A stretch of 64,000 bases of DNA from a virus (IMGVR_UViG_3300027811_000039:21149-85148); one strand, 5' to 3'; counted from the first letter of the stretch, positions 1,304 to 63,631 are shown. The notes: generated by a model not told the origin, from the letters alone. Numbers and translations: made by a program.

Positions 1304-1427
1304 TTTGCATTACCTCACCTTTTTTTATTTTCCTCAACCTCATATGCTTATTATACTCGATCTTGTTGACATTGTCCACATATCACCATCATTTTAAGTA
1401 CATCAATTTTTACCATTTTACTTCCTT

Positions 1428-1643
1428 CTAATACACTTTCATGATCCTGTATTTCTTATTGAACTTTGCAAGATTCCAGCCCTCACCCTGTTCATCAATC
1501 TTTAATGTTTGGTTATCCTCATTGAATCCCAATACTTGTTTGAGCCATATCAAATCATGGTGATTATTCTTGGCATCAATTTTAAACTCAATTTTCAACG
1601 TCTTGCGGTTTACTGCTAATTCCATCATTTTATTTTCCTCCAA
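1428..1643 (-). CDS. Hypothetical protein
   Basis: Short ORF co-oriented with the early-region genes. Confidence 0.5.
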   Translation of the reverse strand: MEENKMMELAVNRKTLKIEFKIDAKNNHHDLIWLKQVLGFNEDNQTLKIDEQGEGWNLAKFNKKYRIMKVY

Positions 1644-1774
1644 TTTTTAGCAACTTAGATTATAATTAAACATCCAATATTCAGCCGATCTATATATGGA
1701 TCTATTCCCCTTCACCCTGCTTGGGTGCTTAGTAACCCAAGCAGGGTGTGCAATCCTTTATAATTCATTTTCAT

Positions 1775-1969
1775 TTACATCTCCTCCAATGACCAATTTG
1801 CTTCTAATCCTTCTGGCTCCTTAACCATAACATCGGATCTATTCATTCCATGATATCTAGCAAATCCGAATGATTTTTTCTCAGCATCCTTCAAATCTTT
1901 TGCCTCGAAAGCTAATCTTGGATCATAAACTTCATCAAACATCAGAACGTGTAATATATATTTTTTCAT
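1775..1969 (-). CDS. Hypothetical protein
   Basis: ORF directly downstream of promoter-operator 2022 with a GAAGGGG RBS. Confidence 0.6.
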   Translation of the reverse strand: MKKYILHVLMFDEVYDPRLAFEAKDLKDAEKKSFGFARYHGMNRSDVMVKEPEGLEANWSLEEM

Positions 1970-2036
1970 TTTTAATTTCCCCCTTCAATTCCTGATCTCT
2001 TGCACTATTGTATCATCTAATGTAGACTTTGTCAAC

Positions 2037-2252
2037 TTATGCAGCTTTTTTTATCTTCATTTCCAATTTGATAATCATATCTTTTACATCTTCGTAATCT
2101 CTTTCGCATTGATTCACTCTTTCATCATACAACTCATAATCGTCATTTGCTTCAAGCGATTCCTTATATGCAGCCTTCATCTTACGTTCCAATCTACCAA
2201 GCTCATAATTCAAATCATCCAACCGTACCTTCATTGATTCTATCTTTTTCAT
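2037..2252 (-). CDS. Coiled-coil hypothetical protein
   Basis: Start reassigned to ATG 2252 (GGAGG RBS). The longer ORF-track start runs through the promoter leader. Confidence 0.6.
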   Translation of the reverse strand: MKKIESMKVRLDDLNYELGRLERKMKAAYKESLEANDDYELYDERVNQCERDYEDVKDMIIKLEMKIKKAA

Positions 2253-2286
2253 TTTAATTTCCTCCATTTTGTTTTTATATTTAGTT

Positions 2287-2333
2287 GATAAGCGATCCCA
2301 TGCCCATCGCGTTGTGGAACGTCCATCGCTCTC
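2287..2333 (-). ncRNA. Leader RNA motif, copy 3 (degenerate)
   Basis: GATGGACG-N14-GGGCATGGGATC closed by a GAGCGAT/ATCGCTT stem, just downstream of promoter 2364. Confidence 0.5.
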
Positions 2334-2538
2334 AACTCCATGCACTTATTGTACCATATTTTAGTAGACATTGTCCACACCAATTTATAGAAATTAATCT
2401 TTATCTAAATAATGAATATCTTCCATCAATTCATAGTCATCCTCATAGAATTCCTCAGCCTTGCTATACTCGATGAGGACATATAATTCTTCTATTCCCA
2501 TCTTAATTATTCTCCTTTTATTCTTAATTTATGGATCT

Positions 2539-2585
2539 GGAAGTGATCCCATGCCCCGGCACATTGCGTTGCGTCCATCACTTCC
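2539..2585 (-). ncRNA. Leader RNA motif, copy 1
   Basis: 35-bp core 2545-2579 is identical to 4045-4079 and is closed by a GGAAGTGAT/ATCACTTCC stem. Confidence 0.55.
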
Positions 2586-2658
2586 TCATCTCTATATTGC
2601 ATATAGTATACGTTTTTGTTGACTTTGTCTACAGTAACATATGGTTAATATTCATTAT

Positions 2659-3027
2659 TTAGGACAATGCTCTGAGCCATCTATCTTTCATGTCTTGGGT
2701 ATCTTTACCTATATCAAAAGACATCGTAACTTCAACCATTCCTTGGTTTGTCTCGAAACGCTTAGGTGCAAATGCTAGGCTGCTTCCAGCCTCAATAACT
2801 CCAATTGCTTTCATGGCATCAAGATCCCTCTTGGCCCAATTTCCAGCTTTCATGAATTCATAAACTTTACCATCTTCCGTGCATCCATATATTATTTTAA
2901 ATCCCATACACTTGCCAGTTGCCTTGTTAGCATCCTGCACATTATTTAAAGGCATTTCATAAAACTTATGGGGCATGAATCCCTCTGTCGTTTTAACCAT
3001 CCCAATAAAATTTTCACATTTTTTCAT
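2659..3027 (-). CDS. Hypothetical protein
   Basis: ORF with GGTTGA leader motif upstream. Confidence 0.6.
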   Translation of the reverse strand: MKKCENFIGMVKTTEGFMPHKFYEMPLNNVQDANKATGKCMGFKIIYGCTEDGKVYEFMKAGNWAKRDLDAMKAIGVIEAGSSLAFAPKRFETNQGMVEVTMSFDIGKDTQDMKDRWLRALS

Positions 3028-3112
3028 ATCTCATCAACCTCTTTCATTTTTTATATCCTTCAACCAACCTATGGCTCATTATACCATTTTTTTGTATACT
3101 TTGTCCACATTA

Positions 3113-3391
3113 TCAAACTTCCAATTCTTTCATTTTTTCTTTCAGATTTTCTAACTCCGCTATTTTATTTCTAATTTCCAATTCCATTTTTGATATTTCC
3201 AACGCTCTCGGGTGCATATCTTTTATTAACAACATCCCATGGTTTACATATAAAAGTGCTATATCACGCTTTTCATTGATGCTAGGATAATAATCATATA
3301 CCATTTGGATAATCTCAAATTCCGCATTAGTAAATACCTTATATTCTGGATTCATCTCTGCAACCAAATCTGTAAATTCAATATTAGTCAT
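3113..3391 (-). CDS. Hypothetical protein with C-terminal coiled coil
   Basis: ORF with strong GGAGGAGG RBS. Confidence 0.6.
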   Translation of the reverse strand: MTNIEFTDLVAEMNPEYKVFTNAEFEIIQMVYDYYPSINEKRDIALLYVNHGMLLIKDMHPRALEISKMELEIRNKIAELENLKEKMKELEV

Positions 3392-3406
3392 TTTTATTTC
3401 CTCCTC

Positions 3407-3664
3407 CTATAATCCATTTATAGCTAATATCATACCTTCATAATCCGGGCCATCCTGAGCTGATCCATATGATTTTTTCTGGTAGAAATTATCTTTAAGC
3501 CAACAAACCTTTTTTTGCACATCCCAGCTAATATCTGAATTTTCAACCATGATAGCAAATGCTTTATCAAAAGAATTCTTAGCAGCAACCTTATTCTCAT
3601 TTCTCATATGTCTACCAGAATTATTCAAGGCTCTCATAATTAATATCTCATTTTTATTCATCAT
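3407..3664 (-). CDS. Hypothetical protein
   Basis: ORF downstream of promoter-operator 3716. Confidence 0.6.
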   Translation of the reverse strand: MMNKNEILIMRALNNSGRHMRNENKVAAKNSFDKAFAIMVENSDISWDVQKKVCWLKDNFYQKKSYGSAQDGPDYEGMILAINGL

Positions 3665-3743
3665 CTTTTCCCCCTTATTCTTTTCCTCAACCTGTGCCTA
3701 TTGTACCATCAAACAGTAGACAATGTCTACTGTTTGATATAGA

Positions 3744-4010
3744 CTAAATTATTCCATATATTTTAGATTTGAAAACAAAGTAATCATCTTCAAATTCAAC
3801 CCAATCAAGTTCACCATTAAACTGTAAGCATTGATATCGGAAGAAAGCTATTATTGCACCAAGTGTCCATTCAGTTTCCTTTACCCATTGCATGAATGAC
3901 ATATCATCGGGCCTCATGCAACAAAGAGCTGTCATTTCATTTTCATGTTCCTTATTGTATGGAGTATTTTTCACCAGATCTATAAATTGTTGCTTTTTGC
4001 TTATCTTCAT
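3744..4010 (-). CDS. Hypothetical protein
   Basis: ORF with AAGGAG RBS, downstream of promoter 4115 and a leader RNA motif. Confidence 0.6.
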   Translation of the reverse strand: MKISKKQQFIDLVKNTPYNKEHENEMTALCCMRPDDMSFMQWVKETEWTLGAIIAFFRYQCLQFNGELDWVEFEDDYFVFKSKIYGII

Positions 4011-4039
4011 TTTGTTTTTCCTCCTTATTTATCAGAGAA

Positions 4040-4084
4040 ATCAAGATCCCATGCCCCGGCACATTGCGTTGCGTCCATCTCGAT
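4040..4084 (-). ncRNA. Leader RNA motif, copy 2
   Basis: Same 35-bp core as 2545-2579, closed by a different stem (ATCGAGAT/ATCTTGAT). Confidence 0.55.
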
Positions 4085-4321
4085 CTCCCTTATGGCTTTA
4101 TTATATCGTAACAAGTAGACATTGTCCACTATATATATTTACCAATTATTAGGCTTTTATCAACTCAAATCTTTCAATAGTTTTACAGGTAAGCTGCCGA
4201 ACAGCCCGCTCTTCTTCAGTTTCCAGCTTCCCCTTATATTCCATGCTGCCCTCATATTTATATGTCAAGATAGATCCATTTTTAAAATATGCAATCGCTT
4301 TAATCATCTTCATTTCCTCCT

Positions 4322-4528
4322 TTATTTAGAATTTAGAATTTCCAGATCCATATCCAATAACCATTGGGCCAAGATTTTAACATCATCCAATTCCTCAATT
4401 TTCAGCTTCCTTGTTTGTCCTATTTCAACGATCTGTTTCAGCCTATCGCCAATCTCATTAATCGTTTTCCCCATATTTTCTCTTTCAGTTTTCATCTTGC
4501 ATCTCTCCTTTAATTTTCTCTCGCTCAC
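4322..4528 (-). CDS. Hypothetical protein (true start probably internal)
   Basis: ORF downstream of promoter-operator 4550. Confidence 0.45.
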   Translation of the reverse strand: MSERKLKERCKMKTERENMGKTINEIGDRLKQIVEIGQTRKLKIEELDDVKILAQWLLDMDLEILNSK

Positions 4529-4592
4529 AATTTAATAATACCATATGTAGTGGACAATGTCCACAGTTGGCCAAGGGTAATGGATATTTATT

Positions 4593-4796
4593 TCAAATGT
4601 TTTCACCAAATGGATTATGGATCAACTTATATATATCAATCCAATTCTTGCAAGCAGAAACATCTAACTCAGCAATCTTGAGCACCATCATTTGATAATA
4701 TCCATCTATCTGCTCATAAGTGCTTAAACGTGTCAATGCTGCCCACGTTCCATAGGATACGCATCTTAATTCGTTCTTTGCTTCATCTTTTGTCAT
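4593..4796 (-). CDS. Hypothetical protein
   Basis: ORF in a tight operon with 4803-5607. Confidence 0.55.
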   Translation of the reverse strand: MTKDEAKNELRCVSYGTWAALTRLSTYEQIDGYYQMMVLKIAELDVSACKNWIDIYKLIHNPFGENI

Positions 4797-4802
4797 TTCA
4801 TT

Positions 4803-5201
4803 TCACCATTTCACTTCAATTAATTCAATGAGCATCCCATCATTCTGAGCTTTCTCAATCCATCCATCCGTGCTATCCCATGTATATGAATTCATGAATT
4901 CTTCTAAGGTCTGGTCACAATCGGATATGTTCATTAATTTTATCGCATACTCTTTTGGGATCGTGAATTCCCTACAGTAATACGCATATTCCTCACCATC
5001 ATTCCTGAATGGGTCATGAGCTGGGTATGCTGTGAGTGTTACCTTTTCCCCAACATATGATGGATTGGATGGTATTATCTGTTCCCTCGGAACTGGTTCA
5101 TCATCCATTTTATTTTCCTCTATCTTCAATCCACAGATCCTGCAATAATTCGCATTACTGCTATGTTCTTCGTTTTCACATCTAGGACATAAATAAATCA
5201 A
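4803..5201 (-). CDS. Zn-ribbon hypothetical protein
   Basis: N-terminal CPRC-x10-CRIC. Confidence 0.6.
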   Translation of the reverse strand: MIYLCPRCENEEHSSNANYCRICGLKIEENKMDDEPVPREQIIPSNPSYVGEKVTLTAYPAHDPFRNDGEEYAYYCREFTIPKEYAIKLMNISDCDQTLEEFMNSYTWDSTDGWIEKAQNDGMLIELIEVKW

Positions 5202-5607
5202 AGCAATTTCCCCCTCTTATATTCTCCCAAGGCCCCTTGTGCTTATGCTTCCATGATAGATCCCTGACCTGTTCACTACTATATTCAAAGTGCTTAATCA
5301 ATCCTCTTGCAGCATAGTATTTTTCCTTATCATAAAATCGCTGGTAGACTCCTTCAAATACAATGTTTTCCCCGATCTCAATCCAACCATGATCTATAGG
5401 AATCCCTCCAAGCACCATGCAGGTTCCATGAATAAGTTTGATTTTCGATTGGCTTAATGAATGTATAATATAATCCCAACTTTTATTAAAACACGCTTTA
5501 GGGTAAACTCTATTGGTAACATTGATTTTATATACAGGATCTACGGCTACCTGCAGATCCCTATATTCTTCTCTTGTTCTCTTTACTGCTTGGTACATAG
5601 TAGGCAT
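5182..5607 (-). CDS. Putative papain/transglutaminase-like fold protein
   Basis: ACFNKS...LIHG...DHGWIE gives a possible Cys-His-acid triad. Start reassigned to ATG 5607 after a GGGG RBS. Confidence 0.45.
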   Translation of the reverse strand: MPTMYQAVKRTREEYRDLQVAVDPVYKINVTNRVYPKACFNKSWDYIIHSLSQSKIKLIHGTCMVLGGIPIDHGWIEIGENIVFEGVYQRFYDKEKYYAARGLIKHFEYSSEQVRDLSWKHKHKGPWENIRGGNCFDLFMS

Positions 5608-5620
5608 TCCACTGTTCCCC

Positions 5621-5770
5621 CTATTCGCTGATTGCATCAATTCGGATGAAGTTATCTTTATCTTGAAGCTTAACAATGAATTTGTCCATAGCTAATCTGG
5701 TTTTGAATTCCTTCATTTTTCCAACCATTTGATCTTTTTTATTAACCTCAACCCATTTTACAGCTACCAT
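5621..5770 (-). CDS. 49-aa hypothetical protein (below the ORF-track cutoff)
   Basis: MVAVKWVEVNKKDQ...IDAISE read by hand, downstream of promoter 5833. Confidence 0.45.
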   Translation of the reverse strand: MVAVKWVEVNKKDQMVGKMKEFKTRLAMDKFIVKLQDKDNFIRIDAISE

Positions 5771-5853
5771 TTTATTTTCCTTCTTTCATTTTTTATTTCC
5801 TCAACCTCTTGGCATCATTATACCATTTTCTTGTATACTTTGTCCACACGTTT

Positions 5854-6081
5854 TTAATATCCTTCTGGCACTTCCTTAACATCCCAATCCCACGGAGCCA
5901 TATTGGTATATTTGCATATATAATCAAAAACATTGGATTCTTTAACCTTCGCAGGGTTTACCTTATATCCATTCCCTCTCAAATCTTTTATGAATCTAGC
6001 CTTTGTTTCGTACTCTTTATTCTCAATAAAAGATATCCCATTGCCATAACTCGATTTCACCAAAGCACTATATGTTTTCAT
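5854..6081 (-). CDS. Hypothetical protein
   Basis: ORF downstream of promoter-operator 6144 with an AAGGA RBS. Confidence 0.6.
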   Translation of the reverse strand: MKTYSALVKSSYGNGISFIENKEYETKARFIKDLRGNGYKVNPAKVKESNVFDYICKYTNMAPWDWDVKEVPEGY

Positions 6082-6174
6082 TTTTAGTTCCTTCTTTCTT
6101 TTTTAAAATCTCTCTCAACCGCATCTTCATAGTACCATCACATAGCGACATTGTCCACACCAAATTATAGAAGA

Positions 6175-6195
6175 AGGCCCGATTATCACGGGCCT
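6175..6195 (-). terminator. Hairpin terminator after the DUF932 gene
   Basis: AGGCCCG-N7-CGGGCCT followed by a pyrimidine-rich tract on the minus strand. Confidence 0.6.
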
Positions 6196-6200
6196 ATTTT

Positions 6201-7217
6201 CTATGCTGCAACAAGTTCGGTATAGATGAATGATTCCAACGCTATTCTTGTATCTTCATTCGTTAATACTTGTGCTGCTCTGGTAAAGCTATTAACAAGA
6301 TCATACACTGTAGCTTGCTTAGAATCTATTCTCTCTACTTGGAAGCACTCCTGTACTGTCACATTGAATTCCTTCGGCAGTGTGATCCCTTTTGTTCTTT
6401 TGAGTAGATCATTGATTGCTTTCATCGGATCAGTAATCTTCATATTTTTTGTTTGAGCGAATTGGGCCATCTGTTTTTCTCCTTGGCTTAAAACCTTTTC
6501 AAATGCCTGAGCAACCTTTAGCGGCATATCTTCTTTCTTAACTCCCATGTGTCTCTGCATGAATCTTTCGGTCTTTGCTTCCACGACTTGAAGGCCATTA
6601 GAACAAATCGTCCGGTATATAAATCCCCCAATTGATACGCTTCGTTTTCCAACCTCGCTATTTCTGATCTGCATACCAAACATTAATTCATCCGGTTGTC
6701 CATCCTTTAATGTCCCAGCGTTATAAGATATCTCAGGGAAAGTTATTCTCATATTGAATCCGTCAAATAACTCATCTGTATTGAATCTCTTGATCTCATG
6801 TTTCTGATCTCCCACAACATCGGCTACCATTTTCAAAACATCAGTATTATCAAAGATTGAATATTTATCAGTGAGTACAGATCTAACATATTTTTTACCA
6901 TCTTGCTCAACCGTTCTCAGCATCCAATTTTTTTCTTCATACTTGGCATTATTTATCCAATAATCCACATTCTGTTTCTGTAGATCCAAAGGGCATCTTT
7001 CCATGTAAGTTGTTGGGATAGCCAATTTGTGGAACAATTGATTTTTTCCCCAATCGGTAAAGCCATAAAATTCATTCCCTGTGATAAGTTCCCCATTCAC
7101 GCTATATCCTAACAATTTAGGGCTAACGAATACATCCTCGGTTCTAGTATCCTTCTCCTTGGACATTTCTAATAATTCATTAATTGTTTTAGTTGCCATT
7201 TTCTTTTCCCCCATCAA
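6201..7217 (-). CDS. DUF932-family protein
   Basis: R.VLTDKYSIFDN...FG+QIRNSEVG..SV.IGGFIYRTICSNGL and C-terminal T.YDL.N.FT pattern. Confidence 0.75.
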   Translation of the reverse strand: MMGEKKMATKTINELLEMSKEKDTRTEDVFVSPKLLGYSVNGELITGNEFYGFTDWGKNQLFHKLAIPTTYMERCPLDLQKQNVDYWINNAKYEEKNWMLRTVEQDGKKYVRSVLTDKYSIFDNTDVLKMVADVVGDQKHEIKRFNTDELFDGFNMRITFPEISYNAGTLKDGQPDELMFGMQIRNSEVGKRSVSIGGFIYRTICSNGLQVVEAKTERFMQRHMGVKKEDMPLKVAQAFEKVLSQGEKQMAQFAQTKNMKITDPMKAINDLLKRTKGITLPKEFNVTVQECFQVERIDSKQATVYDLVNSFTRAAQVLTNEDTRIALESFIYTELVAA

Positions 7218-7477
7218 TTTTTATTTTTTTCCTTCAACCTCTTGGCATCATTGTACTATACATCTGTAGACTTTGTCAACAGTAAACGACATTTATATTT
7301 AATATTTTTTCAAAGCGAATTTTTTACCATTCAATCCTGCGAATCTAATATCAATGAATATGATTTCTATAATTTTTCTCTTCTTCATTTTCTTTTCCCC
7401 CCAAATTTTTTATTTCCCTCAACCTCTTGGCTTTATTGTATATGTTTCTGTTTACATTGTCTACATGAAAATATATC

Positions 7478-7720
7478 CTATTCCCCATCTTTGAACTTTG
7501 TCAAAATCAATTCATCATTCCACATCTCATATGTTACTGAGCCGATACCATCTAGCTCTAAATTACCATTCTCATTAACGTATATATTTATCTCTCTCTG
7601 TAATCCTTCACCATTTATTTTGATCTTGGCCTTTCCTACTAATCTTTTCATGTCTTTCTCCTCCAAATTTACTTTTATATTTAAACTAGGAAGGTTGGGG
7701 CTTACCCAACCTTTTTCCAC
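7478..7720 (-). CDS. Hypothetical protein
   Basis: ORF overlapping the end of the preceding gene. Confidence 0.5.
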   Translation of the reverse strand: MEKGWVSPNLPSLNIKVNLEEKDMKRLVGKAKIKINGEGLQREINIYVNENGNLELDGIGSVTYEMWNDELILTKFKDGE

Positions 7721-8163
7721 ATTAGGTATTCAACGATGCAGGTTATGGTTCTGAATGATACGTTATATTCTTTAGCCAAGTGTGATTTACGCATTCCAGC
7801 TTTAAACTTTCCACGGATTTCTATGACTTGCTCTGGGCTTAATTTTGGTTTAAATTTATCGGTTCTCTCAACCTTTTGAACATTTTCAATCTTCTTAGCT
7901 TTCTTCGCCTTTTTTATCTTCTCTGGCATCATGATAAATTCGATCATCTTATTTAGTTCTTCATCTAATATTTTGCTTTCAATTTCAGATTCTTCGGTAA
8001 TCTTTTCACCAAGCTCATACCATCTTTTAATAGTTGATTCTGTGATTTGTTTTTCTTTTCCCGATTCAACCTCAGTAGCAATGATCTCGCCATTCACCTT
8101 ATGTTCTACTATGAATTCTTTACCATTTCTTTTATTAATTGCATTATATTTCATTTTCATCAA
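7702..8163 (-). CDS. Protein with C-terminal helix-turn-helix
   Basis: KLSPEQVIEIR...KSHLAKEYNVSFRTITCI. Confidence 0.6.
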   Translation of the reverse strand: MMKMKYNAINKRNGKEFIVEHKVNGEIIATEVESGKEKQITESTIKRWYELGEKITEESEIESKILDEELNKMIEFIMMPEKIKKAKKAKKIENVQKVERTDKFKPKLSPEQVIEIRGKFKAGMRKSHLAKEYNVSFRTITCIVEYLMWKKVG

Positions 8164-8467
8164 TCTCCTTTTATATTTAATTTGCTCAACCTCTTATTTA
8201 CATAGTACCATTTGCAGACATTGTCTACAACGCCCAATTATTTCCATTTTATTATTCAATAACCTCATAAAATGAAATGAAGGACATTTTGCTAAGCGTC
8301 ATTTTCCTACCAGTTTCCTTATTTATCAAGGTATAGATCCATCCAGTTTCAGGTGTCCAACCTTCACGGTAAAAATATTCAACCATATTAGATTTATCAA
8401 TGCACGATTTTTCCATTTCTATTTCCTCCAATTTTACTTTTATATTCAGAATGGGGAAGGAGATTTT

Positions 8468-8773
8468 TTACATCTCCTGCAACCATCTCGCATTATCAAA
8501 ATCTAGCAGCCCACCAGCATCTAGTATTTCTTGGAGTGCCTTTTTCCCTCCCATTGGGGTATACGGTGCATCAATCATTGGTCTGCCCATTGCTCTTTTT
8601 AGGAAATTGATTGGGGCCAGATCTGCAGCGAAAGCGAAATATCCCAGCCCTTCCACATGGAAAGCATATCCTTTATTCATTTCAATATAACCTCTAGCTG
8701 TTCCGAATTTTTTACCCTCAATCTTTACTATTTTCAACTTGGCGTTAATTTCTAATGTTGTCATTTCAACCAC
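8468..8773 (-). CDS. Hypothetical protein
   Basis: ORF downstream of promoter-operator 8821. Confidence 0.55.
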   Translation of the reverse strand: MVEMTTLEINAKLKIVKIEGKKFGTARGYIEMNKGYAFHVEGLGYFAFAADLAPINFLKRAMGRPMIDAPYTPMGGKKALQEILDAGGLLDFDNARWLQEM

Positions 8774-8877
8774 TCCTTTTTTTATCTCTCAACCTTATGT
8801 GTTTATAGTACCATTTTTATGTAGACTTTGTCAACAATTAATTTATCAGGAAGGGGAGTTTCCTCCCCATGTTTTAT

Positions 8878-9072
8878 CTAATTTGCATACTTGTGAATCA
8901 CACTCAATAACTCACAATATTCCCCGCCATGAAGTTTATATAATCTGCTTTTATATACGGCCTCCCAGTTACCAGTATCCTTAGCATCCTGAATTCTTTT
9001 AACATCTGCTTGTGTCGTATAACTTTTATCATAAGATCTTCTTTTTTTAATCTCATCCAATATTATTTTCAT
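8878..9072 (-). CDS. Hypothetical protein
   Basis: ORF downstream of promoter-operator 9131. Confidence 0.55.
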   Translation of the reverse strand: MKIILDEIKKRRSYDKSYTTQADVKRIQDAKDTGNWEAVYKSRLYKLHGGEYCELLSVIHKYAN

Positions 9073-9284
9073 TTCATTTTCCTCATTTCATTTTTTAAAT
9101 TCTCCCGGCTCATTTATAATACCACACCATGTAGACATTGTCCACATTTTATTCAAACTCAATCCTTAAATTTGTATATCCAAGGTGCATATAAACTGAT
9201 CGCTTATGATTTACCTTGCTCCTAGTACAATACATACATTTTCCATCTTTTCCGTCCAAATCTGTAAAATATAAAATAAACATT

Positions 9285-9512
9285 TCAGTTCCCCTTCGCT
9301 CTTAATATAGGTGCCATAGATCCTTTGCCCATTGGGTAGATGCACTCCATGTTGTCCCAGTTAGTAATCCTACGACTCGATGTAGAATCCTGCCCAATTC
9401 TTTTTATCGTAATGGATTTATCAGTTCTCCTAACAACCTCATAAACCCAAATGCATTCATAATCGCAAACTGATCTGCATGAATATTCTTGCCCAACTTC
9501 AAATCTTTGCAT
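9285..9512 (-). CDS. Hypothetical protein
   Basis: ORF coupled to 9499-9747. Confidence 0.6.
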   Translation of the reverse strand: MQRFEVGQEYSCRSVCDYECIWVYEVVRRTDKSITIKRIGQDSTSSRRITNWDNMECIYPMGKGSMAPILRAKGN

Positions 9513-9747
9513 TTTTCATTACCTCCATATATTCTTGATAATCATTATTTTGTAAATCCTCAATGGTTTGATATTCCTCTTGCCCTTCTTTCAACATAAT
9601 GCTAATGGTATCAATATTATTCATCTTAACTATTCTCTCATACGCTGCCAACCAACTATATTCATTAGCTATCAATGTAAAATTATATCCTCTTTCTTCC
9701 AACCACGCTTTGTATTCTTGTTCTTCTTCATAATTCATCCTCAACAT
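9499..9747 (-). CDS. Hypothetical protein
   Basis: ORF downstream of promoter-operator 9793 with an AAGGAG RBS. Confidence 0.55.
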   Translation of the reverse strand: MLRMNYEEEQEYKAWLEERGYNFTLIANEYSWLAAYERIVKMNNIDTISIMLKEGQEEYQTIEDLQNNDYQEYMEVMKNAKI

Positions 9748-9816
9748 CTCCTTTTATTTTTCTCAACCCCTATGCTCTATTATAACGTATTTGCAGACAT
9801 TGTCCACATAAATATT

Positions 9817-9855
9817 AATAAATGGATCCCAGTTTTGGGCTGGGATCCATTTATT
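9817..9855. terminator. Bidirectional intrinsic terminator
   Basis: Perfect 16-bp inverted repeat AATAAATGGATCCCAG / CTGGGATCCATTTATT with a 7-nt loop. Confidence 0.8.
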
Positions 9856-9857
9856 TA

Positions 9858-10088
9858 TTACGCTTCTGCATTTCGCTTTTCAATCCAAGTATCAACTTGT
9901 TTCTCTGTCCATACTGGTCTATTCCCAATATAGGTCGCAGGGCTAGGGATGATGCCACGTTTCCAATAGGTATGGACTTTACGGCGATCCCATCCACCAA
10001 TTCTTTTCCCGAACTCAGTCACTCCAAGCAATTTCGGGATACCCGCTATTTCCTTTTTCATTATATCTTCAATAGTTAATACCTTCAT
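9858..10088 (-). CDS. Excisionase/AlpA-like winged-HTH DNA-binding protein
   Basis: LLGVTEF..RIG.WDRRKV..YWKRG..P.P...GNRPVW...V..W. Confidence 0.65.
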   Translation of the reverse strand: MKVLTIEDIMKKEIAGIPKLLGVTEFGKRIGGWDRRKVHTYWKRGIIPSPATYIGNRPVWTEKQVDTWIEKRNAEA

Positions 10089-10100
10089 TATTTTTCCCTC

Positions 10101-10406
10101 CTATTCATTAACGGCAATAAATCTAAATGTTTTTTTCTCAAAATAATGGTGTATACATTCATCAACAACCATTTCCACATTCCCTTTTATATCCCTAATG
10201 TCTCCAAATATTCTGTCATGTTCCGACTTATTAACTTCTGCAACATGTTCCAATGCCTTTAATATCTGAGTATTTTCCTTGACTTGGATTTCTAAACTAT
10301 CAAATCTAGATTCTAATCCATCAAACCTAGATTCTAAGCTATCAAAACGAGAATTCAATTTTTCAAATTGTACTAATACTAATTCCTGAAATTTTTCGTT
10401 ATCCAT
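10101..10406 (-). CDS. Coiled-coil protein (heptad RFD/LE repeats), paralog 1
   Basis: MDNEKFQELVL...RFDSLESRFDGLESRFDSLE. Confidence 0.65.
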   Translation of the reverse strand: MDNEKFQELVLVQFEKLNSRFDSLESRFDGLESRFDSLEIQVKENTQILKALEHVAEVNKSEHDRIFGDIRDIKGNVEMVVDECIHHYFEKKTFRFIAVNE

Positions 10407-10632
10407 TTTTTATCCCCCTATACATCTCACATTTTCTTTTTGCATACATTTCAATCAGATCATTATTAAAATCTACCAATTCTTTATTCCATGCTTTTAC
10501 TATAGAAATCTCATTATCAATGCTATCAAATCTTTGATCCATCTGTTCAAATCTTTTATCAATAACCAAAAACCTTTTATTCATCTGTGTTAATAGATTT
10601 AATACTAATTCTTGGAATTCATTATTTTCCAT
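10399..10632 (-). CDS. Coiled-coil protein, paralog 2
   Basis: MENNEFQELVL...KRFEQMDQRFDSID. Confidence 0.65.
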   Translation of the reverse strand: MENNEFQELVLNLLTQMNKRFLVIDKRFEQMDQRFDSIDNEISIVKAWNKELVDFNNDLIEMYAKRKCEMYRGIKNG

Positions 10633-10639
10633 ATATACA

Positions 10640-10933
10640 CTATTCCCCTTTAACTATTTCCGTGAAGTCACTCCAATCCTCTACCTTAAATGCTCTTATA
10701 TCCCTAACTGACTTCTTGAACCAATCTATTTTTTGCAATTTATTTATCGCTTTATATACATTCGTTAAATTATTCTGGTCACTAGAAATATACAGACTCC
10801 CTTGTGTCCATGTAAATCCAATCGCCTCTAATTCTTGTCTCACTTCAAGATAGGCATTGCCATATGATTCACCATAATGTTTTTTTAATTCGTCTGTTTT
10901 CATATCAAATGCTATCGCATACAATAGCCTCAA
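10640..10933 (-). CDS. vapD: VapD-family (Cas2-like fold) ribonuclease
   Basis: YAIAFD...Y..AY.E+R..L...GF...QGSLY...[20 protein letters not shown]. Confidence 0.85.
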
Positions 10934-11011
10934 CCTCCTTGAGCATTATTTTCTTAATTCAAATGTACCATTTATTGTTTACTATGTCAACAGGATATTA
11001 TTGCCACGCAG

Positions 11012-11401
11012 CTATTCAATATCTTCTGCCCAGCTATCTATCTTTTCAAATGCCAGAATTTTTTCGTCATCAAATCCAGCACCTTCCAATAATCTATATT
11101 CACCTATGATCTCTTGCCCGAACTGCCCCAATATTGCTTGTAAGCTGAATGTCCGTGCTATCCTGCCCCTACCATCCCCCACCTCGGATAACTTTACCCC
11201 TCGCTTTGTTACCTTCACATAAAACCGTTTCTTATCCTTAGAGAAGCCCACATTAATTCTGATCTCTTCCCTATCTGCTTCATCTAGATCCTTTATCAGC
11301 CTAAGCACGACATACCCCGGGAGGTAGCCGATCTTTTTCCTAAGCTTTACCACATCCAAATGCTTCGCCCATGTTATTAATTCTTTGGTGTATGGCTCCA
11401 T
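11012..11401 (-). CDS. Hypothetical protein
   Basis: 129-aa ORF. No family recognised. Confidence 0.55.
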   Translation of the reverse strand: MEPYTKELITWAKHLDVVKLRKKIGYLPGYVVLRLIKDLDEADREEIRINVGFSKDKKRFYVKVTKRGVKLSEVGDGRGRIARTFSLQAILGQFGQEIIGEYRLLEGAGFDDEKILAFEKIDSWAEDIE

Positions 11402-11405
11402 TTAT

Positions 11406-11819
11406 TCACCCCATCTTTGTAAATAAAATTTCAATTTCTGAAATTTTATAATACTCACCATTATAATAAGATTTAGCATTATTTCTTTTTAATAATCTCT
11501 TAACATCCCATGCACCCATGCTAAAATAATGCTTTATATTATTTGCATGAATATATGTTTTATTTGATGGCAGATATGATGAATTGAGGATCGGCGATAA
11601 TTCCACAATATAAAATGCTTCCCTTTCATCTAATTCATTAACATCAACTTCTATATATGAAAAGCTATCAAAATCCTTGTCCCTATGTCCATAAATTCTT
11701 GATACTCCAAACTTGCTTTGGCCTACATAGATTATCTTGTTATCCTTAATCAGAAAATAGATCATCGGTTTTTTATTAATATTTTGTTTTTTATCCAAAA
11801 TATAATTTACCAATTTCAT
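11406..11819 (-). CDS. GIY-YIG-like nuclease domain protein
   Basis: MIYFL....IIYVGQS....SRIYGH...E.E...I..L.P.LN. Start placed at ATG 11819. Confidence 0.6.
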   Translation of the reverse strand: MKLVNYILDKKQNINKKPMIYFLIKDNKIIYVGQSKFGVSRIYGHRDKDFDSFSYIEVDVNELDEREAFYIVELSPILNSSYLPSNKTYIHANNIKHYFSMGAWDVKRLLKRNNAKSYYNGEYYKISEIEILFTKMG

Positions 11820-11855
11820 CCACCTTACTTTTATTATTAATAAGATATATAAACT

Positions 11856-11954
11856 TTGTATAGGTGTATTTTGTATAGGTGTATTTTGTGGGTTCAAATT
11901 CTGCACCCCCCCAGTATAGAATCTGCACCCCCCCAGTGCAAAATCTGCACCCCC
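11856..11954. repeat. Putative replication origin: three iteron-like repeats at 22-bp period plus a 15-bp tandem repeat
   Basis: CTGCAC(5-7) units start at 11901, 11923 and 11945. TTGTATAGGTGTATT occurs at 11856 and 11871, next to an AT-rich tract. Confidence 0.7.
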
Positions 11955-11967
11955 TGTTGATAACTAT

Positions 11968-12357
11968 CTATTTCCTTTCATCCATCATTTCGTTAAATAA
12001 TTTATCTGGACTCAGCATACCTTCCGCAACCATTCTTTCCATTTCCTCTGTGTCATCGTTATATAAAAAATACATAACTTTTTCAAATCCCGGTTTTCCA
12101 GCCTTAACTTTCCATATATAACCATTCTCTTCTAACCACTTCATTCCCGATAAAACGCTATTCTTGCTTAATTTTGTTAGACTTATAAGCTGAGACATTG
12201 CCAACCAATCACCAATTTTTCCCCAACCCCATGTTTTTCTGACTAATATCAAATAACATTTAATAGCAGCAAGATTAGTCATTTTTGGGATATATATATC
12301 AAAAACAACATTTGGGACTTCGGTATAATTTTTCTGTGGTTTTGGTAATCTAAACAT
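11968..12357 (-). CDS. Phage replication-initiator-like winged-HTH protein (lambda O N-terminal type)
   Basis: NYTEVPNVVFD...L.LVRKTWGWGK..DW+AMSQL..LTKLSKNSV..G+.WLE..GYI. Confidence 0.7.
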   Translation of the reverse strand: MFRLPKPQKNYTEVPNVVFDIYIPKMTNLAAIKCYLILVRKTWGWGKIGDWLAMSQLISLTKLSKNSVLSGMKWLEENGYIWKVKAGKPGFEKVMYFLYNDDTEEMERMVAEGMLSPDKLFNEMMDERK

Positions 12358-12377
12358 CTTATTTTTCTCCTTTAATT

Positions 12378-12408
12378 AAAAAAGCCACCTTAGCACAAGC
12401 CAGATAGC
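12378..12408 (-). terminator. Terminator-like hairpin (putative attenuator) immediately before the rep RBS
   Basis: Minus-strand RNA GCUAUC-UGGC-UUGU-GCUA-A-GGUGGC-UUUUUU. RBS AAGGAG at 12372-12367. Confidence 0.55.
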
Positions 12409-12428
12409 AGAAGATCCATAAAATGTCA

Positions 12429-12458
12429 TTGATACCTTGTACTATTACATGGTACAAT
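12429..12458 (+). promoter_or_regulatory. Plus-strand sigmaA promoter antisense to the rep leader
   Basis: TTGATA-18 bp-TACAAT with TG extension, inside an imperfect palindrome. Confidence 0.55.
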
Positions 12459-12464
12459 GGGCAT

Positions 12465-12546
12465 AATGTTATAGGAATCTCTGCACTATTTTGGGTAGTG
12501 CTAAGACGAGAAAACCTTCAAGGACTGAGAATCCTTGGAGGTTTTT
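12465..12546 (+). ncRNA. Putative ~80-nt antisense (countertranscript) RNA
   Basis: Lies between the promoter at 12429-12458 and a 14-bp stem plus T-tract terminator at 12511-12546. Internal hairpin GCACTA-TTTTGGG-TAGTGC. Confidence 0.5.
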
Positions 12547-12564
12547 GCTTTATTCATTTTTGCC

Positions 12565-12573
12565 ATTATATCA
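12565..12573 (-). promoter_or_regulatory. Extended -10 promoter for the rep leader
   Basis: TGaTATAAT on the minus strand, about 200 nt upstream of the rep ATG. Confidence 0.5.
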
Positions 12574-12576
12574 CAA

Positions 12577-12762
12577 TCATGGGACGAGTTGAGTTTTATT
12601 TTTCTCCTTCAACGCTTTCTGGATATAAATCCAATATTCCTTTGATACCACGATAACATTCCCATAATTAGATTCCACTTCAAGTGGCTCATTGGATCTT
12701 ATAACCTCATTTATTTTTCCGAAAAAGTTATCTCTGAACTCAGCTACTGCAATTTTCTCCAT
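12577..12762 (-). CDS. Phd/YefM-family antitoxin-like protein
   Basis: I.VAEFRDNFFG.+NEVI....PL.V....GNV+VVS.EYW. Confidence 0.75.
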   Translation of the reverse strand: MEKIAVAEFRDNFFGKINEVIRSNEPLEVESNYGNVIVVSKEYWIYIQKALKEKNKTQLVP

Positions 12763-12784
12763 CTTCTTTTACTCCTTTACTCTT

Positions 12785-12979
12785 TTACCCCTTTATCTTA
12801 ACTGCTGCAAAAATCATCCTATTAACCCCAATAACCTTTCCTAAAACTTCATGATGTTCATCTTCAAAATGAGTAGGTTCTTTGTATCCCTGTTCCCTAG
12901 CAATTTTTGTATCTTCAAATACATCCTCAATTTTCACTGTCAGAAATCTTGGTGTTTTAATATAATCGCCTTTTTTCAT
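12785..12979 (-). CDS. Hypothetical protein
   Basis: ORF with GAGGGG RBS. Confidence 0.55.
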   Translation of the reverse strand: MKKGDYIKTPRFLTVKIEDVFEDTKIAREQGYKEPTHFEDEHHEVLGKVIGVNRMIFAAVKIKG

Positions 12980-12999
12980 TTCTTTTAAGTTCCCTCCTT

Positions 13000-13269
13000 T
13001 TATGGATTACATAAAATCTCGTCATGGTGCCCACAATTCCTGAAAATAATATTTTCTTTTCCATCTATACTAAATGTAATTCTAATATCCATATTTCCAC
13101 TAATCTCATAAACTCCTCGATACCCTTTGACCTTTTTAAATCTCAAACTATTTGGCAATGGTTCAGAAAACAACTGGACTATCGCCTTATTTATTACCTT
13201 TTGTATTGCTCTATCTAATTTCATATATTGTTTTGTGAAATAATTAGTTCTCTGCAAATCTTTAAACAT
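13000..13269 (-). CDS. RelE/ParE-superfamily toxin
   Basis: RT..F.KQY.KL...SLRFKKVKG..GVYEI...DIRITF...I.FRN.G.HDE. Overlaps the upstream antitoxin gene. Confidence 0.75.
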   Translation of the reverse strand: MFKDLQRTNYFTKQYMKLDRAIQKVINKAIVQLFSEPLPNSLRFKKVKGYRGVYEISGNMDIRITFSIDGKENIIFRNCGHHDEILCNP

Positions 13270-13546
13270 CTGATTTTAACCCATCTAAATGTTTCATTAA
13301 ATTTTCTAGATCCATCGGTTTACTGACTCTTCCCAACCTGATATCTTCATCAGCCTCACGTTCTCCATCTTGCCATTCTTTTGTCCAGAACCATGCTTGG
13401 CTTTTATCAATAACTAGAACTGGTGTAATAATTATCTTTCCATCTTGGACGATAATTTCCAAATTATCCCCTTTCTTTATCTCTAACTCTGCTACAACTT
13501 CTTTTGGTAAAGTTATTTGGGATTTCTCCCTGAGTGTCAGAATCAT
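13262..13546 (-). CDS. AbrB/MazE/SpoVT-family antitoxin
   Basis: LREKSQITLPKEV..EL.IK.GD.LEI...DG.III.P, then QAWFWT.EWQ.GERE. Confidence 0.85.
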   Translation of the reverse strand: MILTLREKSQITLPKEVVAELEIKKGDNLEIIVQDGKIIITPVLVIDKSQAWFWTKEWQDGEREADEDIRLGRVSKPMDLENLMKHLDGLKSDV

Positions 13547-13630
13547 TTCCTTCCCCACTTTCCTACATTCCAACTTTCCTACATTTGCATTGTACTATGA
13601 TTATGATTACTTTGTCAACATGTAAGCAAA

Positions 13631-33021: not shown

Positions 33022-33356
33022 TATCCCTTCCTCCCAAATTTTATTCTAATATGATGATATGCCCCATCTTCATCTGGAAAAGCATCCATATCTAAAATCT
33101 TGGGTTGTGTCCCATCTGGAAAAGTTATTTGATCTTCTGGATCAAACGTCCCTGTTGATGCTACATAGACAACGGCTACAACCAAATTTTCAGCTTCCAT
33201 ATCTCTCGATATAGCTTGATGAAGGTGAACTATACGACATTGATAATCACTTGATGCCGTTGAATAAAGTGGTGCTCCATAGGCTGAATATCCTAATATT
33301 TGATTCCTCACAATTGTATCTCTCATAAATTCAAGGAATTCAGTTTCAAAGCTCAT
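33021..33356 (-). CDS. Head closure/stopper protein
   Basis: Position and D.+T.PDG.+P.I...DE.G..HH motif. Confidence 0.7.
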   Translation of the reverse strand: MSFETEFLEFMRDTIVRNQILGYSAYGAPLYSTASSDYQCRIVHLHQAISRDMEAENLVVAVVYVASTGTFDPEDQITFPDGTQPKILDMDAFPDEDGAYHHIRIKFGRKG

Positions 33357-40435: not shown

Positions 40436-40717
40436 TCATGCTTCTCTCTCCATTCTCTCCTTCTCTGCCCTTACCCTATTTGCCTCTCCTCCCCGCTTAT
40501 GTCTTTCCGATCTGTTATATTTCAAAATCGTAATAACTTCCTCATATAATGCAATATCAATTTCCTTCAAAAATTTCTGCAGATCTCTATGAACTGTACT
40601 TTTGCTTACTCCGAATTCTTCTGCAGTTACCCTAATTGTTGATTCATTTTCAACAATAAAATTTGCTTCCAATACTGCTCTCTGATGGATCAATTCTCGT
40701 AATGCTGAATTAATCAT
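40436..40717 (-). CDS. spoIIID: SpoIIID-like sporulation transcription factor
   Basis: T+R..A.EFGVSKSTVH+DL...L.EI...L..EV..IL.Y.+S.RH.RGGEA matches SpoIIID. Confidence 0.9.
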   Translation of the reverse strand: MINSALRELIHQRAVLEANFIVENESTIRVTAEEFGVSKSTVHRDLQKFLKEIDIALYEEVITILKYNRSERHKRGGEANRVRAEKERMEREA

Positions 40718-63244: not shown

Positions 63245-63631
63245 CTAAAATCCTAGCTCTTCCATCACCCGAACTGCACTATTTGCACCATTACAAACTG
63301 TCGCAAACCAACCAATTTTATTCAACTTCTCAATCCATTCTTCTTGTTCTGGCGTTGCCTTTGTCCCCTTCTTCCTTTTCATTTCAATAGCAACACCCCT
63401 GAACTGTGGTGACTTAGGCGGGATATCAAAAATGATAAGGTCTGGAAATCCCGCTTTCACTCCCTGTGCTTTTAACCTCGCCCCTGTCAAATAACTTCTG
63501 TTCCCACCATTTGGAACATGAATAAAAGTGATCCTCTTGTACTCCATCCATTGAACGAATGCATATTGCTCTTGATCCTCTGACGGTATCGGCATTTTTT
63601 GCTTTTTCTTAGTCTTGCTCACGATATTCAA
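63245..63631 (-). CDS. VRR-NUC domain nuclease
   Basis: E..EQ..+V.W...HVPNGG.R...GV..G.PDL...+EMK...T.EQ..W...L. Confidence 0.9.
   Translation of the reverse strand: MNIVSKTKKKQKMPIPSEDQEQYAFVQWMEYKRITFIHVPNGGNRSYLTGARLKAQGVKAGFPDLIIFDIPPKSPQFRGVAIEMKRKKGTKATPEQEEWIEKLNKIGWFATVCNGANSAVRVMEELGF

Follow-up and report, generated by a model that had tools for sequence, protein, structure and literature searches.

A dyad fused to the -35 box of 18 predicted sigma-A-type promoters in the accessory region of a soil phage

The 86,734-bp IMG/VR virus record IMGVR_UViG_3300027811_000039 (CheckV: 99% complete; here G000) carries, within bases 21149-85148, 18 copies of a 15-bp palindrome, each of which overlaps the -35 box of a predicted promoter. 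This stretch of 64,000 nucleotides is called the window; coordinates marked genome refer to the full record and all others to the window. Judged from their anatomy, the 18 sites are most likely promoters of the host sigma-A type which share a built-in operator. Our preferred reading, to which we give a probability of roughly 0.6, is that they constitute one regulon, which a single dimeric DNA-binding protein turns off. We infer that such a protein binds the palindrome and represses the promoters, and also which proteins are the best candidates for this function.

Anatomy and conservation of the promoter units

Allowing up to two mismatches, GTAGACNNNGTCTAC gave 17 matches in the 64 kb against 0.49 expected, a number that none of 100 shuffles reached, and 15 of the 17 matches fall in 1365-9807. 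A position weight matrix built from the 15 strong sites was scanned over the 86.7-kb genome and added weaker units at 10977, 13605 and 6144. In total, 15 strong and 3 weaker GT-N-GAC-N3-GTC-N-AC copies are located in 1365-13619, all on the minus (gene) strand, and the 18 copies claimed in the original prediction were thus borne out by the mismatch search and the whole-genome scan. Beyond these 18 sites within 14 kb, the matrix revealed no copy in promoter register elsewhere in the genome. The structural region had been described as free of clean copies; it contains none in promoter register, only a site inside an open reading frame (ORF) at 33165, one without a -10 box at 59375 and a weak match at 63354. 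The site at 59375-59389 is an intergenic orphan located after a sigma-region-4-like gene. A further dyad-like orphan without a -10 box (genome 20466-20480; L006:1466-1480) lies inside a 131-aa ORF heading the operon that encodes ParA and an 81-aa protein of the XRE type (XRE-81). The set of sites was picked by core matches, and a promoter-only scan recovers the same units: in this consensus scan for sigma-70-type promoters, which took no account of the palindrome, the palindrome units rank best in the region, and on the minus strand of 1-14.4 kb all eight promoter matches scoring 11-of-12 are palindrome units.

On the minus strand the units follow the layout GT[G/A/T]GACAA[T/A]GTC[T/A]AC, 6-10 nt, (TGg)TA[T/C]AAT, often with GGTTGAGG 7-10 nt further on; an A-rich leader, a ribosome-binding site (RBS) and the start codon complete the arrangement. 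In all 18 units the element is on the gene strand, and an RBS and ATG follow 60-110 nt downstream. The left arm is at the same time the -35 hexamer, T[G/A/T]GACA in 18 of 18 units with 5-6 of 6 positions matching TTGACA, exactly as had been claimed for the half-site, and the right arm occupies the upstream half of the spacer. Spacers measure 17 bp (8 units), 18 bp (7), 16 bp (1) and 14 bp (1, unit 8214), and the -10 boxes (TAnnnT) are mostly TATAAT, TACAAT, TACTAT or TATTAT. The TG-extended -10 box, proposed as a feature of these promoters, holds for a part of them: TG is present at -15/-14 in 10 of the 17 units scored, but the rest are without it. The extended inverted repeat noted at 3716 turned out to be longer than claimed, with 15-nt arms (3708-3738). 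The site at the toxin-antitoxin operon does precede the MazE-like/ParE-like pair, but its right half (GTAATC) is weak.

The conservation profile of the element is mirror-symmetric. The pairs G1/C15, A5/T11 and C6/G10 are invariant (G1/C15 in 17 of 17 units), and G1 lies outside the -35 hexamer, with its mirror C15 in the spacer. Positions 3 and 13 of the dyad are both variable. T0 (14/17) and A16 (13/17) lengthen the dyad from 15 to 17 bp (T-GTnGACAAwGTCnAC-A), which spans about -37 to -21 with its centre near -29; the bases between the dyad and the -10 box carry nearly no information.

In the relatives G001 and G002, whose portal protein is 90% identical to that of G000, 8-10 or more of the same units are found in the syntenic region; orthology is only partial, with 18 units in G000 against roughly 9-12 in these genomes. 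Among 21 orthologous unit pairs, 48% of the upstream 19 nt, 46% of the distal spacer and 29% of the free dyad positions differ. The core differs by 2%, a value that is partly circular because the sites were selected on it. From this comparison, the retention of a site at each orthologous position despite near-saturated flanks is real. The conservation of the non-promoter half, within the genome and across relatives, agrees with the earlier proposal that units of 1-3 genes form a regulon under one regulator.

Sigma-A has no known need for the right-half bases within the spacer. Other sigma-A-like promoters of G000 (P_cro, P_cI and the par-operon promoter) do not contain the dyad, and host polymerase therefore does not need it. 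Because these spacer bases are near-invariant, mirror the left half and are kept in two relatives, the element fits an operator for a dimeric repressor that would block the -35 box. MerR-type activation involves a dyad between -35 and -10 and a spacer of 19-20 bp, whereas a dyad centred at -29 with a 16-18-bp spacer has the geometry of occlusion and not of class I/II activation. The operator of a MerR-type activator was rejected, since the spacers are 16-18 bp long and the dyad centre at ~-29 overlaps the -35 box.

Following DNA entry, host RNA polymerase would fire all units together, and small genes with accessory, establishment or early functions would be expressed in a burst. A dimeric protein of the phage would then occupy the dyad, compete with sigma region 4 for the -35 box and shut off the whole set, either once the (plasmid-)prophage is established or at a later stage of the lytic cycle, or at both times. 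The repeated promoter blocks of ~60 bp probably double as joints at which related phages gain and lose cassettes.

Table 1. Promoter units of the array, with the genes that they are predicted to drive, and further features of the window (UTR, untranslated region; HTH, helix-turn-helix)
Feature	Position	Strand	Dyad	Spacer and -10 box	Leader, genes and remarks
Unit 1	1365..1379	-	GTGGACAATGTCAAC	17 bp, TATAAT at 1350-1355	GGTTGAGG leader; 902-1303 (DUF2958) and downstream genes
Unit 2	2022..2036	-	GTTGACAAAGTCTAC	17 bp, TGaTACAAT	1775-1969
Unit 3	2364..2378	-	GTGGACAATGTCTAC	18 bp, TGgTACAAT	leader with GC-rich 5'UTR element
Unit 4	2618..2632	-	GTAGACAAAGTCAAC	17 bp, TACTAT	leader with GC-rich 5'UTR element
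Unit 5	3094..3108	-	GTGGACAAAGTATAC	18 bp, TGgTATAAT	2659-3027
Unit 6	3716..3730	-	GTAGACATTGTCTAC	18 bp, TGgTACAAT	core of perfect 31-bp palindrome; 3407-3664
Unit 7	4115..4129	-	GTGGACAATGTCTAC	17 bp, TATAAT	GC-rich 5'UTR element in leader; 3744-4010
Unit 8	4550..4564	-	GTGGACATTGTCCAC	17 bp, TGgTATTAT	perfect 7-nt arms; 4322-4495, 4149-4313
Unit 9	5833..5847	-	GTGGACAAAGTATAC	18 bp, TGgTATAAT	GGTTGAGG leader; 5621-5770 and downstream genes
Unit 10	6144..6158	-	GTGGACAATGTCGCT	17 bp, TGgTACTAT	right half degenerate; GGTTGAGA leader; 5854-6081
Unit 11	7266..7280	-	GTTGACAAAGTCTAC	18 bp, TACAAT	338-aa DUF932 protein (6201-7217)
Unit 12	7450..7464	-	GTAGACAATGTAAAC	17 bp, TACAAT	GGTTGAGG leader; 29-aa ORF
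Unit 13	8214..8228	-	GTAGACAATGTCTGC	14 bp to TGgTACTAT	153-aa HTH protein (7702-8163)
Unit 14	8821..8835	-	GTTGACAAAGTCTAC	18 bp, TGgTACTAT	8468-8764
Unit 15	9131..9145	-	GTGGACAATGTCTAC	17 bp, TGgTATTAT	8878-9072
Unit 16	9793..9807	-	GTGGACAATGTCTGC	16 bp, TATAAT	9499-9744, 9285-9512
Unit 17	10977..10991	-	GTTGACATAGTAAAC	17 bp, TGgTACATT	weaker; Cas2-like ORF (10640-10924)
Unit 18	13605..13619	-	GTTGACAAAGTAATC	18 bp, TACAAT	weakest right half; MazE-like (13262-13573) and ParE-like (13000-13269) pair
153-aa protein, candidate binder	7702..8163	-			weak C-terminal HTH_7/HTH_23-like motif
SpoIIID homologue, candidate binder	40436..40717	-			PF12116 E 1.3e-26; PDB 2L0K E 1.2e-18
GC-rich 5'UTR element	2294-2327, 2545-2579, 4045-4079	minus			also L171 near 17340, L173 near 8020

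The transcripts of about 12 of the 18 units would begin with a common leader, consisting of GGTTGAGG (or GGTTGAGA, or GATGAGG) and an A-rich tract, 7-10 nt downstream of each -10 box (window 1334-10935); orthologous leaders occur in G001 and G002. This leader could stabilise the 5' end in a Shine-Dalgarno-like manner or offer a target through which the mRNAs are controlled together. Three units carry, in place of the usual leader, a GC-rich element of ~35 nt (GATGGACG...GGGCATGGGATC), which is kept in G001 and G002, is without an Rfam match and may be a structured 5'UTR; an Rfam scan of 1-16 kb as a whole gave no relevant match. The promoter of unit 8214 (8202-8228) has 14 bp between -35 and -10 against 17 bp in its G001 and G002 orthologues and may be deliberately weak or recently damaged. 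Orthologues of unit 17 are likewise present in both genomes. A terminator hairpin (9817-9855) precedes unit 16, and few units have one. In the relative G004, a gene block on the opposite strand at 29-37.5 kb (L290:9000-17500) replaces most of the array and leaves 1-3 dyad sites; the array therefore behaves as an exchangeable module.

The phage, the array genes and the candidate binders

G000 is a siphovirus with a G+C content of ~36% and nearly all of its genes on the minus strand. It has genes for tape measure, Dit, Tal, portal and large terminase, and the window encodes two sigma factors that have only regions 2 and 4. Outside the window, the gene of a CI-like XRE repressor is located on the opposite strand and faces a Cro-like gene; a RecE-like exonuclease, a DnaD-like replication protein, a PemK/MazF toxin, the ParA operon and a 182-aa XerC-like recombinase (genome 11601-12149) are also encoded there. 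Plasmid-type rep, toxin-antitoxin and par genes flank the promoter array or lie within its region. The sequencing runs listed for the phage are DNA runs from soil metagenomes, with no RNA run among them, and its closest portal relatives are prophages of Clostridia-type genomes; megablast against the INPHARED phages gave no match to the array region or to the structural genes. On these grounds, G000 looks temperate and is probably a phage-plasmid of a spore-forming Bacillota host.

The array serves about 40 small ORFs, most of them without a Pfam family. Products with a match in the region are DUF2958, DUF932, Cas2-like and lambda-O-like winged-helix proteins and the MazE/ParE pair. Accessory or establishment functions are suggested by where the region lies, with tail genes on one side and par, rep and toxin-antitoxin genes on the other. 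The original prediction had spoken of host-takeover genes, a label that no annotation backs: few of the products belong to a family, and around or among them are rep, toxin-antitoxin and par genes. Since CI/Cro, ParA, the toxin-antitoxin pairs and the plasmid-type rep make the phage look temperate, that label is unproven, and it is safer to speak of genes with early, accessory or establishment roles in a probable phage-plasmid. The Cas2-like ORF under unit 10977 (10640-10924/10933, 94-97 aa; PF09827, 24.9 bits against a cut-off of 23.8) stands alone, in a phage that also carries TIGR arrays.

Several dimeric-type HTH proteins that are conserved in all five relatives are encoded by this phage, and five HTH proteins were considered as candidates. 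Our rough order of candidates begins with the CI-like XRE protein (119 aa; genome 10859-11218, plus strand), which is 75-92% identical in the five relatives and has an invariant recognition helix. It is followed by XRE-81 (genome 19990-20235, minus strand), whose gene is located in all relatives just after the array and ahead of ParA; the protein is 52-67% identical among them, with the S/T, N, S and R positions of the recognition helix, the likely base-contacting residues, kept. The Cro-like protein (genome 10330-10662, minus strand), another phage or host protein and a SpoIIID homologue complete the list. A single dimeric repressor that was not found within the window had been predicted, and the best candidates, the CI-like and the ParA-adjacent XRE proteins, do lie outside it.

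Further assignments were considered and dropped. A role of the dyad as the CI operator of the cI-cro switch found no support, as it does not occur in the cI-cro intergenic region, which has conserved blocks of its own, and the site at genome 20466 was rejected as an operator upstream of XRE-81, being inside an ORF and without a -10 box. The 153-aa HTH protein is disfavoured as the binder: it is present in G001 and G002 and absent from G004 and G005, both of which keep the motif. A MrpR-like repressor was also discarded, since the only recombinase-like ORF (genome 11601-12149), which keeps the R, HxxR and Y residues as read from its sequence, was matched to catalytic domains of XerC/XerA, with six PDB matches that did not include an MrpR chain. 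The sequence TAGA-N5-TCTA resembles the operator of P22 Arc, and GTGGAC/GTCCAC that of Mnt; the Arc and RHH_1 families of Pfam had no match in any of the five genomes. Comparison by eye with DnaA, Spo0A, CtsR, TnrA/GlnR, NtcA and PrfA boxes showed that their invariant positions or spacing do not match.

The par operon (genome 18.6-21.2 kb; L006:570-2243, L005:18657-19714) encodes a 131-aa coiled-coil-like protein, a 42-aa zinc-ribbon protein, XRE-81, a 98-aa protein, ParA and a 100-aa protein whose ORF overlaps the end of ParA. Except for XRE-81, these small neighbours of ParA are without a Pfam family. The promoter of the operon, TTGACG-17-TAGACT, is followed by the SpoIIID-like box TGGGACAAGA.

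Occurrence elsewhere and alternative readings

Exact 15-mer scans of IMG/VR yielded single chance matches only, apart from the relative G002 and the 49-kb phage contig IMGVR_UViG_3300032307_000123 (G009), an unrelated phage from soil with 37% G+C. It contains at least 10 sites of the form G[T/C]TGACAWWGT[A/C]A[G/A]C, of which 4 are good promoters and about five are palindromes without a -10 box in a 950-bp non-coding stretch. With the exception of an HNH nuclease motif, G009 and G000 share no protein, and G009 has no SpoIIID gene. The promoterless copies of G009 support protein binding and, together with the palindromes at genome 20466 and window 59375, point to binding independent of promoter function. 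The non-coding stretch (L379:3060-4700) also has the repeats ACGTAAT and AATCAAGGACTTAG. No array was seen in ~400 Bacillota_A genomes, where the top count of 6 was due to one repeated element; Bacilli and other classes were not searched. An exact 15-mer, GTGGACAACGTCAAC, occurs in 3-5 dispersed copies in each of two large Bacillota_A genomes (G124 and G083), probably as part of a repeated element.

Several of these results weigh against a dedicated repressor. No candidate is linked to the dyad: neither the cI-cro intergenic region nor the promoter of the XRE-81, the CI-like or the SpoIIID gene contains it, so that the usual sign of autoregulation is lacking. Conservation of the left arm cannot be separated from that of the -35 box. 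In G005, a more distant relative, the right arm is degenerate: only G10, A14 and C15 are fixed and positions 11-13 drift, which suggests a weaker or different constraint. Finally, G009 has the motif without a detectable shared DNA-binding protein, so that the determinant could be sought at the level of the host, as a polymerase preference or a host factor.

We consider it unlikely, although worth serious attention, that the element is an extended promoter consensus or an inherited cassette without a dedicated binder. An early-promoter module consisting of -35 box, spacer element, -10 box and GGTTGAGG leader would then have been spread by recombination between small-gene cassettes, in the manner of T4-type promoter-early-stem-loop (PeSL) cassettes, and would be recognised by host or phage-modified RNA polymerase. 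The conservation of the whole ~60-bp block, including the -10 box and the leader, is consistent with such a module, as are the gain and loss of cassettes between units in close relatives, the decay of the right arm in G005 and the use of G-TTGACA-WW-GT in genuine promoters of G009. Recent copying, however, does not explain a pattern in which the positions from the dyad to the -10 box have diverged near-randomly (46%). Sigma-A contacts offer no known basis for the mirror symmetry, which extends to G1/C15 and T0/A16; other promoters of the sigma-A type in G000 lack the element, and palindromes without a promoter exist. We regard it as very improbable that the palindromes are dispersed partition or global-regulator sites, bound by a ParA-linked protein (XRE-81 or the product of the 100-aa gene after ParA) and serving both as centromere-like sites and as operators, comparable to RK2 KorB-OB and N15 sopC. 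In every relative, the ParA operon, which includes XRE-81, indeed lies directly downstream of the array, and the region also has toxin-antitoxin genes and a plasmid-type rep. A search around par for a separate cluster of repeats that might act as a local centromere found none; the 36-bp repeats at genome 15.4-16.8 kb are TIGR arrays. On the other hand, no ParB/KorB homologue was detected, although no ParB-specific search was made; XRE-81 has only 52-67% identity between relatives with the motif, and all 18 sites are in promoter register, which is not required of a centromere.

Control of the SpoIIID type appears hardly probable to us. The phage homologue, or SpoIIID of the host mother cell, would bind RRACA cores in both arms and turn off the sigma-A promoters as a SigE/SigK-like programme of the phage takes over. 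The homologue is bona fide, with the recognition helix of B. subtilis, and present in all five relatives; SpoIIID is known to repress by overlapping promoters (PMC517825). In addition, 12 of the 15 strong sites of G000 have G or A at position 3 and not the sigma-A-optimal T, and read GGACAA or AGACAA, corresponding to the RRACAR core of the published consensus TAGGACAAGC (PMC11180830). However, a matrix of ten B. subtilis sites (Table S2 of PMC517825; WWRRACAR-GY, idealised as TAGGACAAGC) scored the palindromes at -7 to +1.5 bits against 7.7-14.4 for the known sites, and on these scores SpoIIID was rejected as the binder. The conserved 3' G-C of the box is replaced by T/A-G in the palindromes, the bottom strand of the right arm reads ACT and not ACA in ~40% of the sites, G005 has GTTGACA throughout, G009 has the motif without the gene, and binding as a monomer does not explain the strict dyad. 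In favour of this type of control, a perfect GGACAAG, the core of the SpoIIID consensus, is found over the -35 box of the putative cI promoter (genome 10750-10790, L005; TTGTCC, 17 bp, TATAAT; GGACAAG on the other strand, TAGGACAAGT in G000), where it is invariant in all five related phages and its flanks vary; SpoIIID of the phage or of the host may act on the switch between lysis and lysogeny.

A broader interpretation, which we consider rather improbable, is that the dyad is a common code read by a host-encoded or widely exchanged small protein which gates several unrelated phages in soil spore-formers, or by a ParA-linked protein that performs both partition and global repression. If a shared code were real, several unrelated phages could have their early or establishment genes gated by one factor.

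Comparison with known regulons

If one protein controls the 18 promoters, an uncultured 87-kb phage would offer a clean single-input regulon for ~40 small genes without known function, in a region of the kind that usually conceals genes for anti-defence, host modulation and establishment. An operator fused in a fixed manner to the -35 box would make for a simple, portable and tightly repressible promoter design. As the phage also has SigE/SigK-like sigma factors and a SpoIIID homologue, the shut-off agent would clarify the timing of its programme in spore-formers.

By analogy, the type of circuit proposed for our preferred reading, a single dimeric repressor, is already known from SPbeta, phiC31, L5, P1 and the kor regulons of plasmids. 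In the conserved inverted repeats of phiC31, the gp71 stoperators of L5 and the C1 operators of P1, one repressor acts on many dispersed sites and silences lytic or early genes across a temperate genome, P1 being a plasmid prophage. The sites of L5 and P1 are asymmetric, and many of them are located inside operons or away from the -35 box, whereas in G000 all strong sites are dyads in promoter register and the whole set lies within one 14-kb module. Plasmid circuits such as RK2 KorB-OB, R388 ArdK and pSM19035 omega place a shared operator on strong establishment and accessory promoters and allow a burst when a naive cell is entered, after which all promoters are shut down uniformly. Like the array, these circuits are linked to ParA-type partition genes; G000, in contrast, is a tailed phage, and no KorB, ParB, omega or ArdK homologue was detected in it, although no search was aimed at ParB. 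T4-type PeSL cassettes, in which a promoter is paired with a stem-loop resembling a terminator and which are not regarded as operators, resemble the array in their near-identical early-promoter blocks between small ORFs, their location in a hyperplastic region and their variable content in close relatives. They differ in that the repeat of G000 is a 15-17-bp dyad over the -35 box and few of its units have terminators.

The closest characterised system is the MrpR-SPBRE regulon of the B. subtilis prophage SPbeta, and the analogy drawn earlier is apt: the master repressor MrpR (YopR) binds the 15-bp SPBRE at ten promoters, in intergenic regions in front of small early genes or genes of unknown function, and keeps the prophage in lysogeny (PMC10516654). 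SPBRE had been predicted in silico decades before MrpR was found (PMC10516654). Two differences stand beside this likeness. MrpR has the fold of a tyrosine recombinase, while G000 encodes only a 182-aa XerC/XerA-like catalytic domain, and the motif of G000 is, unlike SPBRE, a clear dyad fused in fixed register to the -35 hexamer.

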